Below the pieces are notes generated by a model. That model ran no database searches. It was not told the origin of the DNA and worked only from the letters and a program-made list of their open reading frames with translations. Below are positions 42,331-62,688 of a DNA stretch of 64,000 nt, piece by piece. The DNA is taken from contig NW_026889764.1 of assembly GCF_033153115.1 (NCBI RefSeq), positions 930,001 through 994,000 of the forward strand, in the 5' to 3' direction. The DNA is from Saccostrea echinata (Eukaryota). The first letter of the stretch is position 1. Each line of letters opens with the position of its first letter. A program made the translations under genes and the position numbers.

Positions 42331-43182
42331 TATGGCATGTCAAATGTTGCAATATTCGATCTTTTCCATTTGTATTGTATAATTTTCTATTTGTATTGTA
42401 TAATTTTCCATTTGTATTGTAAAAGTTTCCATTTGTATTCTATAATTTTTCATTTGTATTCTATAATTTTCCATTTGTATTCTATAATTTTTCATTTGCA
42501 TTGTAAAATTTTTATTTGTATTCTATATTTTTCATTTGTATTCAATAATTCTTCATTTGTATTGTATAATTTTTTATTTGTATTGTATAATTTTTTATTT
42601 GCATTGTATAATCTTTATTTGTATTGTATAATTTTCAATTTGTATTCTTTAATTTTTCCTTTGTATTGTATAATTTTTATTTATATTGTATAATTTTCCA
42701 TTTGTATTGTATAATTTTCCATTTGTATTGTATAATTTCTCATTTGTATTGTAAAATTATAGAATACAACTGGAAATTTATAGAATACAAATGGAAAATT
42801 ATACAATACAAATGGAAAATTATAGAATACAAATGGAAAATTATAGAATACAAATAAAAATTATACAATACAAATGAAAAATTATACAACATAAATGAAA
42901 AATTATTGAATACAAATGGAAAATTATACAATGCAAATAAAAATTATACAATACAAATGAAAAAATATACAATACAAATGAAATATTATAGAATACAAAT
43001 AAAAATTTTACAATACAAATGAAAAATTATAGAATACAAATGGAAAATTAAAGAATACAAATAAACATTATACAATACAAATGGAAAATTATAGAATATA
43101 AATGGAGAATTATAGAATATAAATGGAAAATTATACAATACAAATGGAAAAGATCGAATATTGCAACGTTTGACATGCCATA
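42331..43182. mobile_element. Foldback non-autonomous DNA transposon made of inverted 20-21-bp minisatellite arrays (IS3EU-type ends)
   Basis: TIR TATGGCATGTCAAA(T/C)GTTGCAATATTCGATCTTTTCCATTTG, 6-bp TSD CCCGCA (42325-42330, 43183-43188), unit ~TTTTCCATTTGTATTGTATAA flipping orientation near 42755. Confidence 0.88.
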
Positions 43183-44760: not shown

Positions 44761-47183
44761 TAGCCCCGATTTTTAACATCTTCTTAGCCCGGATTTTTCA
44801 ATTCGCGACATTTTATTATGAATTCTGTCGAAGATGCAGCCAGATGTTTGGCTGCATATAAAGGGCAAAATCTGAACTCTGTCAGAATGGATTAAATGTT
44901 TTAGAAATACATGTATATTAAAGAATCGTGTTACAAAGTTAAAAAGGCAATACACAAACCATCTATCCTTCCGTTTTCACTCGGAGAGTGATAAATGAAT
45001 TAGAAAAACTACATGAACAATATGTTATGGTTCCAGCAGACAAGGCTTGTATGAAAATAACAAGGTTAAAAGATCAGAAGACAACAAACCATTGTTAAAT
45101 GATAGTTGTAAGGTTAAGTATTCAGATTGCAAGTCAGTATTACGTCAATTTAAGAGGGTCGACCCTCTGATGAGAGAGAAAACTTTCCAGTAAAAAAATC
45201 TAATATTACTCATAGTTCACTTTACCAGAGTTAACTCTTATTGACTACTCAAAGGTCTCAATTATTAAACTCTGGTAAAGTAAACTATGAATAATATTAG
45301 GATATATAATATTATGCTTCAATCATTCTTGCCAGAGAGGTATATCGTCGCGTTTGTATACTCGTATTTATCTTTATAATATTTATCAAGCTTTCTAACA
45401 AACACAAGTCTACAAATTTTGAACATAACCACAATAACCCTAACTTTAGCAGCTCACGGTTAAACTGAGTTCATCGATTGTTCTCTGAAAAGTAAATAAA
45501 ATGAAGCAACTGTGGTCGAAAATTATGCCGAATGATGCAAAGAAAACGTTGTTGCACCACATTTACATGTACGTACATGTATTACTGTACGATTTCACAT
45601 GACGTACAAGTGAGTGTTTGTGAGTTCATGATTGAGTGGTATTGAGTAATAAACTTCCCTTTTAATTTCTTCCTTGATAGATTTTGTCTGTTTATATGAT
45701 TTTTTTTTTCAGTTTTTTTTTTCCTTTGTCAACATCACTTTTATGAGGACTGGGATTATGAAGATTTTTGTGCATGTCATACTTGTTTTTGTCTATTTAC
45801 ATGACGTCAACGATATGAACCTTATAACTGGGTACGTTTATTCGTGCATTTTGTTTCAGCAGAAAGTGAAGTTCATTATTACCGGCTTTGTATATACATT
45901 CAACAGTTTTCACAATTTTTTTTTCTGTGTGGCCTCATTTATATTCATATTCATAGTTGTTTCCTTTTACATTGATTAGCTCTTTATAAAAACTTGCACC
46001 TTATGTGTCATGCAATGCAACATTAACATGAATTAAAATGATTTAAATAAGATGATATCATGGTGAAAAGACGGTGAGAAAATGAATTTTTAAAGAATGA
46101 TTAACAAGTTTAAATAGAATGTAATTTATCAAGCACACGTTATGCAAACTATGGCATAGTGCAATGCAAAGTATATACATGTAATATATTTAACATTTTA
46201 GCAATATGGATACAAATTTAACGTGACTCAAGTTGAAAAATGCCCAATGAGTAAAGAGGAATGGGACGCTGCGTGGACCAGACTGAAATGTAACGAAACA
46301 CATGGATACCACTGTGTTCCAGACAAAAACATGACATCCCTGATAGAGTTCTGCTACATACGTGGAAGCAAACTTCCATTTGAGAAAGGTTTAATGAAAC
46401 TTTTCTTGTGCATAACAATTATACTTTAGTAGAAAATATGAAAAATGTAATTCAATTTCAAATACATCATAAAATGGGTCAAGAAATTCTTAAAAGCAAA
46501 TATGCATTCCACATACAGAAGATCATGAATCCCCCTTCATTGACTGCTTTACTTTTAATTAACTTGAGATCAGGGTGATATCCACTCTCAATCATCTTCT
46601 TGCAATATTAAGAGTTAAATGTAGTCTGCTCTGTATGTATTCTTCCTCTGGTTTATTATAAGTATTTGCAAACCTTCTCACTCAGTCTCACGTGTCCAAT
46701 CCCTTTGCTTACCTTTTTGTGCTGACAGGGAATTGTCTTGAATTGGCGGCGGATGGCATACTTAACCATTATCCCTGTGAGAATTCATTTCCCTGTGGAT
46801 GCCCAGATAGATTCTTCTTCAGTAATGAAATATATAAATGTAAGTCGTTTTCAGTACTTCTTCTTTACTGAAGTGCTAAAGGTTTTGCTTTCTCATTGCT
46901 TAATGCCAATCGTTTTACAAAATGCAAATACATAGCACACAAGTTATATGTTACTGGATTGTTTTGAGAGACATTCTTTTTAATATCAAAAACAATTTTG
47001 ATTATTTTTGCAAACCTTCATATTGTAAGTAATAGAAAATTAAAAGTTGCATTCCTAGGAATAAAAAGTTTTCAGGACTGTTCATATAACGCACCTAAAT
47101 TCTTCTTTTATTTCTAGATCCTAAATGTCTACAAATCAATCAAGAACTTGGTTGTTTCCATGCTGATATTCAATGCTTTATTT

Positions 47184-48453
47184 GGGTGAATTAAAAAAAA
47201 TGACCAAATGCATATTTATCAACCCACACTAAAAATACATGCAATGAAAATAGATTTCTATGTCTCAGCATATGTCTTTAGATAGTGTCTAAATACCTGC
47301 CAAATATCTCATTGATATCTCAATTAACAAAAAAGTTATGCCCAAAAATAATGCTAAAATTGTCAGGAGTGCAACACCTTTTTGTGTCATTTTGAAATTT
47401 CAATATTTTTTGTGACATTTTGAAATTTCAATATTTTTTGGAGATCTGTGAAATAAAAAATAATGCTTCATGTTGAAGACTTTCCTGATAATACTCAAAG
47501 TATTGAGCTTTAAATGTGGACTGTCATAACTTTTGTTTAATCAAGTTGTGGCCATGGCTGATGTTTAAAAAAATGTTGTACCATGTCAGGAGTGCAACAG
47601 AAAAAATTTAGTGTTGCCGAAAAAACATCAATTGTAAAATTCGGGTAGGAAATTAAGACAAAAAAGAATTTTGGAAGTGTAAAATAATAACTGATATACA
47701 TTTTAAAACTTAAAAATGTTATATAAATCACAAGCAGCATTAATGAGAGTCAAGTATATGTGCATACCCAAAAATGTCAGGAGTGCAACATTTGATGTTA
47801 TGCTCCCAAGCATGAAAAAACTATTATCATTATATCATTTTCTGATTTATATTTTGGAAAATAAAGACACAAAGAACATTTTTACCAAATAGATTTATCA
47901 ATTACAGGATCTGTCTGTGCTTCAGATCCATATTTCTATGGTCAGGAGTGCAACACATTTTTTTAAAGATTCAAGTTGTGTGACGAAAAAACTTCTATTA
48001 ATGCTTAGAAGTATTCATTAATTAATAATGATCTTTTTGTATAATTTAAAGCTAAATTATTGACAGTTTTATTATTGAAATCCTTCCTTTTTTCAAGTTT
48101 ATGAATTCAGATGTGTTTTTTATCTTTTTTGTGATTTTTTTAATGAACGTTAAAAATAAACACACTAAAACATTGTAATAAAATTCAAGTAATTCCTCCT
48201 CACCTTCACTGAAACAACAGAACAAGTTCTTATGCAATTTTCACTTCACAATTCTACTTTAAAAGCCCCAATGCCTTTGGTCAGGAGTGCAACAAATATG
48301 TTAGAATTATAAATCATCCAATACGAATAAAAATAACGAAAAAATGATGAGTAGAATTTTTCTGGTGGGTTACTGTGTTTGTCTTCTAAAGGAAAATATG
48401 CTTTAAAATATATTTTATCTTCTAAATATAATTTAAGCTAGTTTTTTGTTGTT

Positions 48454-48499
<46 letters not shown>

Positions 48500-49568
48500 A
48501 TAAAATAGGGTATAGTTCCAGATAAAATGCGAATTTTAAATACTTTCATCTGTTTTAATTATGAAGTATTGGACTATAAATATTGCACAATTTCATTACC
48601 ACTTGATGTTTCCAACACTTTATGAATGTTTGTGTTCTATGGTTTTAATTTTAAACTTTACTGCAGTCAGGAGTGCAACAAAACTGCTTCATAATTACCG
48701 ATGGTTTTTAACTATCTTTACTAAAAAATAAATTGAAAGAAATGCTTGATACTATTTGATGTTCAAAACACTATGTCTATCAACAAATTACAGAAATTTT
48801 ACAGTCAATTCAGGGAATAGATTTCATCATTTCACATATATTTTAAATACAATTCATATATACTACACTTTGCAAATAATCATGTTTTAAGAAAAACCTG
48901 CTGTAAACGATGAAAAATATCAACACTACAAATTGATTTACAAAGTAAGAATGGGTTATTGTGTGTTATAATTTTTAAAACAATATTAAATAAAATACAT
49001 ATCAGATGTCAGGAGTGCAACACAAAAATGTAACATAGGGTCACTTCAAAATCTAGTATTTTTGGTAAGAGAACTCGTATATAACAATTCTTTTTTTGGC
49101 TTAGATTTAAAGAATTGACTTGAACGGACAAAACAGTGAATTTTGGGGAATTTTATTGCTTCATATTTTTTTCATCTTAAAACTTTTCAAACCAGAATTG
49201 AAAAAATAATGTAAAATAACAATCAAAAAGCCAATTTTTGTCACATGTACAAGAGAAGATACTCATTCAAGGTCTAGATTTAATCATTTATACCCCTTTT
49301 ACCATTTTGAAGCATAAAAAAACTATAATTTCTTGTGATTATGTATTTTAGAAAGTCTTTTAAGGTGTAATGATATTTTCTTTTTTCAAAAGAAATTTTA
49401 CTAATAAAAATTCTGAAACTTTTTAATCCAATTGTCTATTCTATTGCCACTTCAGGATTTTAAACTAGAATGCATTTGCAATATGATGATATAGGTGAAA
49501 AATATGTTATAAGTAGTTGAATTTTGCCAAAAAAATTCAGTTTGATGGTCATTTTTTTTAATTCACCC
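47184..49568. mobile_element. 2385-bp non-autonomous TIR transposon with 4-bp ATTT TSD (Sola-like signature) inserted in exon 4 of copy 3
   Basis: ATTT|GGGTGAATTAAAAAAAATGACCA ... TGGTCATTTTTTTTAATTCACCC|ATTT. Excision restores a 70-nt exon, the same length as copy 2 exon 4, ending TCA AG|GTATGT. Confidence 0.92.
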
Positions 49569-49865
49569 ATTTCAAGGTATGTGTTCTTTTAAGAGCCGGT
49601 CTCTTTAACTTTAACTCTAATATATTGGCTGGACACAGCATCATAGTCTAAGAATTTCTCCAAACTTTCTATGAGTAAAGTCTTTGTTGCCATAAACTTA
49701 TATCAGGCAAAAATTGGTTGTTATGTGTTGTGGTTTCCACTGAACATTTTCCTTCTTGGTAACCAAATCAATAGTATTCTTTTCCTCATCAAACCAACAA
49801 TATCAATATATGACATTCAATTTTCATTCTAGCTGATAGTACACTTTAAAGTGAGGTAGATAATC

Positions 49866-51722: not shown

Positions 51723-53935
51723 ATAATGTTCTGTTTATTAAATATTGTTCAAATGAATACATCTTCGTGATTAGAATGCTCCTAGTTGTGGGTTCCAAAC
51801 TACTAAGAGTATATTATAAGTATGTTAATTACAACACATTGCGACTCTCAAATTAAAATTAATACAATTTTCGGCTTTTTAAATGCTCAGTCTGAATTTT
51901 AAAAAATAAAAATTATTAATTTTACGATTTACGATTTTTGGTAATATTAAATCCTTGACTTTTTCAAAATCACAATATGTTCTTCTCTCACCATATCCAA
52001 CCAACCTAACATCACTTCACAGCTGGGTCAGCTATAGAACCAAGAGTCATCAGAATTCAACCTCCGGAAGAACATTTGTTACAAGAAAGCCAATCAAACG
52101 TTCGGGACACGATTGGCCAGTCAGCCGGAAGTCCCCAGTCTACAGCTGAACACCATCAGTTACAAGACAATGGAACTAACTTTCAAGGTATAACTAATCA
52201 TTATTTCATCTCAATTCTTCGTCTCAGATACAAGACAGTGGAACCTTAAAGGTATAACTAATCAATTCTTCACCTCAGTTACAAGATGGTGGAACGTTCA
52301 AGGTATAACTAATCTTTTTTTATTCAATTCCTTATCAACGAGGAAAAAGCGTAAAAAGTTAAAAAGTAAAACTGTGTAAAAAAAAAAATAATAATAATGT
52401 TCACTGGACTTTGAACAATATTTCATTCAATATATTTCATTCCAAAAAAATGAAGCAGGTGGAGGGATCGTTACACATTTTGTTAATTTTTCTTTTAATG
52501 TTACCATTTTGCAGACTCGGATTTTGCGAGTCTCATAGCAGCGTGTAGAAAGGGAGATGTACAAAGATATAATAAACTGACAACACCACTGGAATTTGAT
52601 AAAGACTTACTGACAATAAAAGATAATATGGGATGGACAGTCCTCCATCATGCTCTATATTGGGGATGCCATGAAATCGTGTAAAGTTTATTGGGATTCA
52701 AAGAGACGGACTTATATCGAAGAGACAATACTGGAAGGATCGTTCTGCACTTGGCTGCAAAAAGAGGGAACACTGAAACTTTTGACGCCATTCTGCAAAA
52801 GGCTTCCAAAACCGATTTAATGCAGATCAAGGACAAAAATGGTCTGATCCGTTCTGTTACGCTGCCCATGCTGGACAGAAAAGTATACTAGAGGACATAA
52901 GAAGAAGGGGATTCGATATTACAAAGGTAACAAAATACGGTGAATCTACTGCACATCTCGCATGTATTGGAGAAAGCTTAGACATTTTGAAGATGGCTTC
53001 GGAAATTGATCAACAGTGTACACAGGAATCAATGAACAATGGACAGGAGAAAGAAGAGGAAATAATCAAGAGAACAAATAAGATGGACTGGAATACCCTC
53101 CAATATGCAGCCAAGTCTGGAAACACAGAAATTTTACAGTTCTTGGACGAGAGACATGTTCTTGTACATAATGTAAACGAAGATCTGAAATCTGCCTAAC
53201 ATTCTGCTTGTGAAAATGGACATCTTGAAGCTGGAGGTATATTGCTCAACATCATCCTGAAAGTATACATACCACAGATAAGACTGGGAGACATGCTGGC
53301 CATTTTGTAGCTAAATGTGGAGATGTAGAAGTTCTGAGATACCTGATCGAGGACTGTAATCTGCAAGCAAATGCACTGTCATCTCAAAATATTAACATTC
53401 TTCATATTGCATGTTCCCATGGAAGACTCCATATTTGTAAATATATAGCAGATAGATATCCAGAGTTAGTCAAACAAGAAAGCAAAAAGGGCTGGAATGC
53501 AGCTTTGTTTATAGGTGAAAAGGGGGGAGCTGATGAAGATAGGATAGACATTTTTGAGTATTTACTGAAAACACATAATCTCTTTGTGTATCATGTCTCT
53601 AGAGCTGGAAAAACTGTTCTGTACAATGCCTGTGTTAATAGGTCGTACATGCTCTGTGAACATCTTCTTAAAAACTATCCAAATCTATTAACTGTCGAAC
53701 GTTCAATGAACCCTCAAAATGCAGCAAAAGATTCAAAGATAATTAATCTAATACAGAAATATTCTACAAGAGAATGACATACCAAACTTCAATTCAGTAA
53801 AAGGAATGTATCAGGCAATTGAATCTATGGGTAAAGGTTACACAGTGAACAATGAAAATATTACTGTGATAGGAAGTATAGATACACTGTGGCTCTGTAT
53901 CTGTTATTTAGATACTAGGATATTTTTTTTCAACA

Positions 53936-62063: not shown

Positions 62064-62688
62064 AAACTAGAGGTACTATGAGCACTGAGCTCACAAATGA
62101 TACACCCCGCTCCCATATGAGTATAATGGCAAAGATCATTTTTTGTTGTGGCCAAATATCTTTCCAATCAAAGCATAAGGTAGGAGGTGCACAATGGCAC
62201 TATGTAATAAAGATTCTGTGAAAGTATTGTTAAATTTTATTCAGTGGTATAGAGGGAGTTTGCGGATAAGAAATGGGTACCCCTGATATTATAGAAAGAA
62301 TGGCAGTGCATGTCCATGTTTTAGTATTGGAGACCTGAACTATGTGTCAAATCAAAAAGTAAAATAGGAGGTGAACAATGGCACTGTGTAATAAAGATTC
62401 TGTGAAAGTATCATTAAATTATATTAAGCGGTATAAGTGGAGTTGCAGATAAGAGATGGGTACCCCAGATTTTATAAAAAGAAACCCAAAATATGTGTCT
62501 GATCAAAAAGTAAATAGGAGGTGCACAATGGCTCTATGTAACAAAGATTTTGTGCAAGTCTCATTGCACTTTACTCAGTAGTGCAAGAGGAGTTGCAGAT
62601 AAGAAATGGGTACCCCCAGGCATAATGGTTGGATAGACACCCCCATCACTATACCCCACCCCCATACTTTTCAAACGGGGATATAATG
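62064..62688 (-). mobile_element. Helitron/Helentron-type element with ~150-185-bp tandem units in SHQ1 intron 1
   Basis: AACTAGAGGTACTATGAGC...GCTCAC end, three units with GGAGGTGCACAATGGC.CT.TGTAA.AAAGATT, CTATACCCC...GGGGATATAA end. Confidence 0.68.

Follow-up and report, generated by a model that had tools for sequence, protein, structure and literature searches.

Conserved words at common distances in a Sola2-like non-autonomous transposon of Saccostrea echinata: likely transposase-binding sites

Background

Little is understood of the way in which cut-and-paste transposases locate their ends in chromatin and bring them into a pair, and for the Sola2 group we know of no biochemistry. A 64,000-nucleotide stretch of the genome of the oyster Saccostrea echinata (contig NW_026889764.1, positions 930,001 to 994,000; hereafter the window, numbered from its first letter) contains a non-coding transposon in which one 15-bp word is repeated seven times. 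What keeps these words identical, which protein might bind them, and what sets the distances between them?

Results

A non-coding element in a host exon

A sequence-only reading of the window had described seven identical, co-oriented 15-mers within a non-coding transposon. All seven exact copies lie on the plus strand where it placed them (Table 1). The element is delimited by 23-bp terminal inverted repeats (TIRs) and an ATTT duplication and contains no ORF of at least 100 aa, but it is located in a host coding exon. The word had not been noticed elsewhere in the window, and this is true down to two mismatches: there is no further copy with one or two mismatches, and three matches with three mismatches compare with a chance expectation of 1.16. 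The spacers had been called mutually unrelated, and the 36 pairs of spacer units in the window copy do score like shuffles (mean z 0.06 in local and -0.14 in global alignment), with a maximum z of 3.4 in this copy and 4.4 on the family consensus. TRF reported no array over the element except the private 28-mer and the poly-T tract. A tandem satellite or minisatellite was thus rejected as a class, since the units between the words are not homologous. The spacings given earlier were correct for this copy, but two of them are private: as the family consensus has its words at the positions listed in Table 1, 223 and 386 bp are expansions of 201 and 338 bp, and the family values are 201, 191, 165, 337, 338 and 357 bp.

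Table 1. Features of the element and its insertion site in the window, and groups of related elements
Feature	Position or loci	Strand	Remarks
Upstream part of interrupted host coding exon	47118..47183	+	acceptor AG at 47116-47117
Target-site duplication ATTT, left copy	47180..47183	+	
Non-autonomous DNA transposon, Sola2-like, 2,385 bp	47184..49568	+	young subfamily; 2.1% from 2,329-bp family consensus
Left terminal inverted repeat, 23 bp	47184..47206	+	starts GGG
Motif 1	47362..47376	+	consensus position 180 from left end
28-bp duplication private to this copy	47379..47434	+	with a small deletion takes gap 1 from 201 to 223
Motif 2	47585..47599	+	consensus position 381
Motif 3	47776..47790	+	consensus position 572
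Motif 4	47941..47955	+	consensus position 737
Motif 5	48280..48294	+	consensus position 1074
Poly-T expansion private to this copy	48442..48497	+	takes gap 5 from 338 to 386
Motif 6	48666..48680	+	consensus position 1412
Motif 7	49008..49022	+	consensus position 1769; 561 bp from right end
Right terminal inverted repeat, 23 bp	49546..49568	-	
Target-site duplication ATTT, right copy	49569..49572	+	
Last four exon bases and GT donor	49573..49578	+	now 2.4 kb downstream; placed by the paralog's exon end
GRG..CYC-ended group	L330, L337, L369, L371, L376		4-bp target-site duplications
CAC..GTG-ended group	L343, L338, L345, L348		
GAC..GTC-ended group	L349, L357, L361		
Second non-autonomous Sola2-type family	L458:2637-4707, L456, L457, L440, L421, L427, L439		own word on the same ruler

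The interrupted exon shows 68% amino acid identity to a paralogous exon at 37205-37261. It belongs to a Cys-rich/ankyrin-repeat gene with exons at about 46219-46389, 46730-46841 and from 47118 onwards and with ankyrin ORFs at 52786-53777; a paralog of this gene occupies 35263-40439. A transcript that continued from the exon into the element would reach a stop in the TIR; if a possible new donor there were used instead, the reading frame would be shifted. For these reasons the gene copy is probably disabled, and the window probably carries a knock-out allele.

Other repeats are present in the window. Another high-copy repeat starts just to the right of the element (49627-49739), where contig depth reaches several hundred. 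At 42362-43151 a 21-bp unit makes up two head-to-head arrays and thereby a near-palindrome of 800 bp, and short arrays at 15905-16318, 22579-22916 and 62341-62616 have nucleosome-sized units of 165, 164 and 150 bp, typical of oyster repeats. Elsewhere in the genome, a palindrome that we take to be RFX X-box-like recurs once per 156-bp satellite unit in L341:6624-7258 and L360:6707-7651, and less regularly in L400:3169-4614.

The word, wherever checked, belongs to one family and is conserved in it

Patterns for the word and the TIR were counted over the whole 923-Mb assembly, with the reversed pattern as control. The 15-mer occurs 4,355 times and the TIR pattern 1,007 times, and both reversed controls gave 0; the family comprises about 500 elements as a lower bound. 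Perfect 4-bp target-site duplications flank 44 of the 55 two-ended copies that we fetched, with 87.5% A+T and 22 different tetramers. The copies form a young group, 1-5% from the consensus, and an old one at 12-16%, the latter with median gaps of 202, 196, 167, 333, 346 and 358 bp. Contigs of four sequencing runs cover the element in two organisms (A, B).

All 20 word clusters fetched from the first 100 matches listed align to the family, and so do all 30 sites fetched from the 61 found with atypical flanks (two pairs share an element). To the question raised earlier of how the word is distributed inside and outside the family, these 50 loci answer that every checked site is inside and none outside. 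The word is still present in family copies that are merely 68-75% identical. When metagenomes were scanned with the TIR pattern, 118 loci came up; they look like matches by chance, and the word is absent from all of them even if two mismatches are allowed. A scan of viral contigs found no relative. Family copies are often interrupted by other elements (L111:1353-3968, L125:3943-9378, L044, L131, L135), among which piggyBac-like ORFs could be recognized by eye from their translations.

Conservation of motif and spacers was compared in TIR-ascertained copies only, after removal of CpG, homopolymer and gap-adjacent sites. The motif proved far more conserved, with 35 substitutions observed and 79.8 expected in 26 young copies, and 35 observed and 134 expected in 11 old ones. 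Between the old and the young consensus, 95 of 1,295 spacer sites differ; the motif has 0 changes where 9.5 are expected (P 8e-5). Motif variants common to several young copies are depleted about tenfold (1 versus 10.4 expected), whereas private ones are depleted by only 24-35%: 33 versus 43.2 expected in the young copies (P 0.065), and 31 versus 47.5 in the old (P 0.007). Together with the unrelated spacers, this conservation lends good support to the earlier proposal of a selected, putatively protein-binding array.

Because the motif is fixed between subfamilies and private mutations are merely about 30% depleted, selection acts mainly on mobility, and the contrast between shared and private variants indicates that the word is protected mainly in copies that go on multiplying. 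This is the signature of a cis-requirement for transposition, although the private depletion leaves some room for constraint after insertion. The split between lineage and private mutations points to selection on the cis-sites of the parasite, not on the host.

Assignment to the Sola2 group

The 4-bp target-site duplication of the Sola superfamily and of Sola2 is present in the family. Sola2 termini are said to follow the rule 5'-GRG..CYC-3', which reportedly goes back to Bao et al. 2009. The window element and its copies end in GGG..CCC, as do L330, L337, L369 and L376, which carry an HGK motif; L371 ends in GAG..CTC. Sola3 could be rejected: its target is TTAA, found in 3 of the 44 duplications. 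The same applies to Sola1, whose target preference AWWT (PMC3845634) fits just 9 of the 44; moreover, 50 DUF7869 loci are without our TIR and word. The 23-bp TIR agrees with the presence of TIRs in Sola elements, reported at 11-1124 bp (PMC10741241). A Repbase rule asks that positions 1-11 from the terminus match those of a classified element with no more than one difference (PMC4455052); compared by eye, the first 11 positions of our element differ from L450, L330 and L455 at three or more. We regard membership of the Sola2 group as likely.

Transposase-bearing relatives have their own words

A codon pattern for the Sola2 motif matched 35 loci in the genome and its reversed control 0. The same HGK..DG..G motif is present in the Sola2-2_HM row of a published alignment (PMC3627910, supplement rows). 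Together with further matches, the HGK-motif loci fall into three groups by their termini (Table 1). No clear 4-bp target-site duplication was seen in the CAC-ended group (L343, L338, L345, L348, L382) or in the GAC-ended group (L349, L355-L357, L361, L363). The L349 family is very young (copies more than 99% identical, a 927-aa ORF), and the transposase locus L362:1-7225 lies within long flanking inverted repeats that are 99.8% identical over at least 521 bp.

In the GRG- and CAC-ended groups, each family has a dispersed word of its own, built on the 14-15-bp frame that is also seen in the window element, for example GTCATTACCGaAACg, GTCttTCCTGTTACa and aAAATGTTCGTTACt. In L330, L337, L371 and L376 the words have the shape GTC-N6-G(C/T/A)WAC, with 3-15 matches per arm set versus 0.10-0.23 in shuffles. 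No dispersed word was found in the GAC-ended relatives L349 and L354. Within a family the words are uniform (pairwise identity 0.68-1.0), and they differ between families of one genome; word similarity tracks protein identity with a rho of 0.57 over 75 non-independent pairs. The nearest word to ours is that of the decayed L347, GTCAGTGGTG(T/C)AACA, at 2-3 mismatches. The second non-autonomous family has its word and TIR in common with a transposase-bearing remnant, L450.

For our own element, the autonomous partner that the sequence-only reading had proposed to look for was not found by protein, DUF7869 or pattern searches: no transposase locus examined has our TIR, or the 15-mer within two mismatches, and the TIR differs from that of every autonomous element seen. 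No partner came from protein searches, for which L337, L343 and a pair of L347 fragments served as queries (two of these searches scored 90 of 174 and 71 of 273 candidates). The DUF7869 search scored 150 of 240 candidates, and the 50 loci inspected were other TIR elements without the word. A convergent-pair pattern gave 0 matches. Long TIR-to-TIR copies among 40 TIR-ascertained loci proved to be nested insertions, and a look-alike of the 15-mer in L369, at three mismatches, was rejected, the repeated word of L369 being a different one.

Five relatives come from contigs filed in Sedimenticola MAGs. These contigs have 37-40% GC, long non-coding flanks and, beside L464, an apparent splice acceptor before an exon, features that suggest animal host DNA; L460-L464 are therefore probably host contamination. 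Two proteins of these Sola2-type transposons carry a bacterial label in the database. An intact transposase encoded on another contig of the oyster assembly is identical to a database protein labelled Saccostrea echinata.

Distances from the end are shared between elements

The sites of different elements lie at common distances from the end, at about 180, 390, 577, 740, 1,080 and 1,420 bp. Measured from the left end, the site centres of our element are at 186, 388, 578, 744, 1080 and 1418. The corresponding values are 188, 394, 584, 740/756, 1086/1104 and 1442/1464 in L343; 190, 574, 732/746, 1078 and 1414 in L345; 386, 576 and 740 in L458; 404, 594 and 748/764 in L330; and 398, 588 and 744/758 in L337. 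For five of our six left-arm sites, L343, L338 and L345 each have a counterpart no more than 10 bp away (P 2e-4, 2e-4 and 1.5e-5); in L348 this holds for three of six (P 0.006). The arms of these CAC-ended elements are unalignable with ours (z -0.7 to 1.0, and -0.7 to 0.5 for the first three). The four GRG-ended elements, which are closest by their termini, match more weakly, with 1-2 sites within 10 bp (P 0.03-0.33). L464, from another assembly, has 14 near-identical words. The first six lie 0-4 bp from the corresponding positions in L343, the two proteins being 38% identical and the arms scoring a z of 1.9. Of our six left sites, four have an L464 site no more than 10 bp away (P 0.002). From the right end, the autonomous elements have sites at 196-208 (inverted), 532-593 and in some cases 922-957 bp, and our element at 554, 912 and 1250, with none at 200.

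The gaps themselves are trimodal, with two classes above 60 bp. Among 127 gaps shorter than 480 bp in 15 elements, 43 are of at most 60 bp, 1 is of 61-145, 44 of 146-225, 2 of 226-300 and 37 of 301-400 bp; the longer ones cluster at 150-206 and 326-384 bp. The two loose spacing groups of about 165-225 and 340-390 bp that had been noticed in the window copy reappear in this distribution. As the ruler is shared by descent, the 127 gaps are not independent and represent one pattern that has been kept. Ten of the 84 site-free stretches that separate the clusters measure 136-144 bp and one 62 bp, below the 147-bp nucleosome core. GC is flat across the gaps at 0.27-0.31 and thus gives no sequence sign of positioned nucleosomes. 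WW dinucleotides show a broad periodicity hump at 9-10 bp, read without a null comparison and left out of the argument.

The transposase model ends in a barrel

The intact L343 protein (805 aa) was modelled by AlphaFold with a pLDDT of 88. In the model, the N-terminus forms basic helices; an RNase H core that is integrase-like (Z 10.1) is joined by a C-terminal barrel, which reached a pLDDT of 89 when folded alone. Among 48,161 chains the top-ranked match of the barrel was the PHF19 Tudor domain (Z 9.2, rmsd 1.9, 55 residues), followed by that of MTF2 (Z 9.1, rmsd 1.1, 50 residues); the NusG KOW domain, at Z 8.5, is within 1 Z of them. Foldseek gave no match to the barrel at an E of 0.001 or better. 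Pfam Tudor_4 was matched by 6 of 13 members, with a best E of 1.2e-4 that was not set against the curated cut-off. Five whole or near-whole transposase ORFs gave no significant Pfam family, and the best hit of the transposase in a PDB sequence search had an E near 1.

The likely cage positions Y726, Y731, F749 and W759 are 98-100% aromatic in alignment A1, that of F749 in all non-gap rows, and three of the likely cage aromatics of the L343 barrel align with aromatics of ADCP1. In the GRG-ended group, the group closest to our element, the F749 position is A, V, T or C. The modelled C-terminal barrel of Sola2-type transposases (L343:6851-7129; alignments A1 and A2) has a Tudor/SH3-like fold, and a histone-reading role is a lead only. 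The Sola2-type elements L347:6996-7463, L371, L454 and L455 carry a stretch with a GDGNCL motif, similar to one in the hAT-like-looking ORFs L410-L415; we label it OTU/vertnin-like by assumption, and Pfam gave no such match.

Discussion

We propose, with a probability of about 0.55, that the words are conserved binding sites for a transposase in a Sola2-like non-autonomous transposon and that their spacing fits the linkers between nucleosomes. The binder is probably a transposase supplied in trans; since the variants of the word are specific to single Sola2-type families, we favour it over a host factor. The Sola2 enzyme, produced from another locus, would bind each pseudo-palindromic word, probably as a dimer, since the words of the CAC-ended group are palindromic. 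The row of sites could gather the enzyme and help to bring the short TIRs together; with many sites, the element might secure more of an enzyme that is limiting or pair its ends more readily, and the master copies that keep all seven words perfect would be those that spread. Gaps of about 175 bp or twice that length would place the sites in linkers. Provided that the binder is the transposase, we lean towards a nucleosomal ruler with one or two nucleosomes per gap. That the C-terminal Tudor-like barrel touches the intervening nucleosomes is a doubtful addition, drawn from the model.

The same sites could instead be spaced by the geometry of a large protein-DNA complex, through looping, wrapping or bending and without nucleosomes. 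All evidence for transposase sites applies equally to such a complex, some of the free stretches are just 136-144 bp, and GC carries no nucleosome signal. In addition, the distances in L464 and L343 agree to 0-4 bp, and linker lengths are usually thought to vary between species by more than this. Higher-order synapsis has been invoked for Galileo's secondary sites, which lie at 561-577 and 701-718 bp (PMC3688188). However, gaps that fall near 175 bp or its double, with hardly any of intermediate length, are not predicted by a loop model, and the transposase carries a barrel that resembles chromatin readers. We consider purely geometric spacing unlikely, though it is the alternative that fares best.

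It is also conceivable that the word attracts a DNA-binding protein of the host, such as a factor of RFX type, that opens the element or drives germline activity. The RFX X-box is a 14-bp GT..AC site with the consensus GTNRCC-N(0-3)-RGYAAC. Its length is that of the GT-N10-AC frame of our word, perfect X-box-like palindromes occur in satellites of this genome, and private mutations in the word are mildly depleted. However, our word has three mismatches in 14 to the X-box, and those of five other families have 3-6 (N2 spacing only). A single host factor does not require words that differ between families in one nucleus, which makes such a factor less likely, and none of the 50 loci checked has a site outside the family. 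We regard a host factor as improbable.

Two further explanations are very improbable. A decayed tandem repeat, or a functionless amplification accident of one master copy, would suit a genome in which satellites with 156-168-bp units, similar to the gap size, are common; but the spacers are unrelated, the motif is unchanged between the subfamily consensuses, as the sequence-only reading would have it for an array that is not decaying, the word persists in strongly diverged copies, and the same distances recur in unalignable elements. Retention of inserted copies by the host as regulatory elements, with the word conserved after insertion, could account for the private deficit, but shared variants are depleted far more strongly, lineage variants sampled once can explain the small private deficit, and the window copy disrupts a coding exon.

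Transposase sites placed between nucleosomes would, if the arrangement is general, amount to a Sola2 chromatin ruler kept across animal hosts, with words in successive linkers up to 1.5 kb inward, a Tudor-like grip on the nucleosomes, a transpososome assembled on a phased array and a seven-site family that outcompetes its master. We put this forward as a speculative extension that is less likely than the core proposal. A position code kept within a few bases while the spacer sequence turns over would be a rare and directly testable design rule. The intact natural element L343, with its word and distances, allows tests of binding, spacing and chromatin dependence, and the ruler offers a means of classifying derivatives of Sola2 that are non-coding and of matching each to its transposase.

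Comparison with known systems

With Sola2, our element shares the 4-bp AT-rich target-site duplication, the short TIR and the GGG..CCC ends seen in L330, L337 and L376, as far as the sources describe the group (PMC3627910, PMC10741241, PMC10294476). Like these three relatives, it has a dispersed 14-15-bp word, and frame and distances agree with theirs. Unlike them, it has no transposase gene and a TIR sequence of its own. Its seven sites also differ from those of the autonomous elements: they are single, all alike and all in one orientation, and the inverted site that autonomous elements have 190-207 bp from the right end is missing. In the literature surveyed, which leaves aside the founding paper and Repbase Reports, no description came up of dispersed words in Sola elements, of a rule for their spacing or of a Tudor-like domain.

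The barrel of L343 aligns best with the Tudor/Agenet readers PHF19, MTF2, PHF1 and ADCP1. This likeness is one of shared fold only: KOW and other SH3-like barrels are within 1 Z, and the GRG-ended group is without one cage aromatic.

CENP-B boxes, 338-342 bp apart in alpha-satellite dimers, are described in the linker between positioned nucleosomes (PMC4410388). With its 15-17-bp word and transposase-related binder, the CENP-B box is similar to our word in length and spacing, by analogy only. The CENP-B protein is of domesticated pogo type and its satellite is a tandem one, whereas our element is mobile, its spacers are non-repetitive and its transposase group is unrelated.

Subterminal transposase sites in general are already well known. 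Secondary or subterminal binding sites are reported for Galileo, P, Sleeping Beauty, Bari and Ac/Ds (PMC3688188, PMC3878927), and those of Galileo, P and Sleeping Beauty have been proposed to gather the enzyme and aid the pairing of the ends (PMC3688188). Galileo sites at about 70, 561-577 and 701-718 bp were shown to bind (PMC3688188). Our words resemble such sites, several short family-specific ones beyond the TIR that are thought to add end specificity and to offset length. However, as described in these sources, the sites of these five systems are parts of long TIRs or of tandem repeats with homologous units, whereas our spacers are unrelated. Unlike those sites, our candidate sites reach 1.4 kb inward, and their distances are kept between families that can no longer be aligned.
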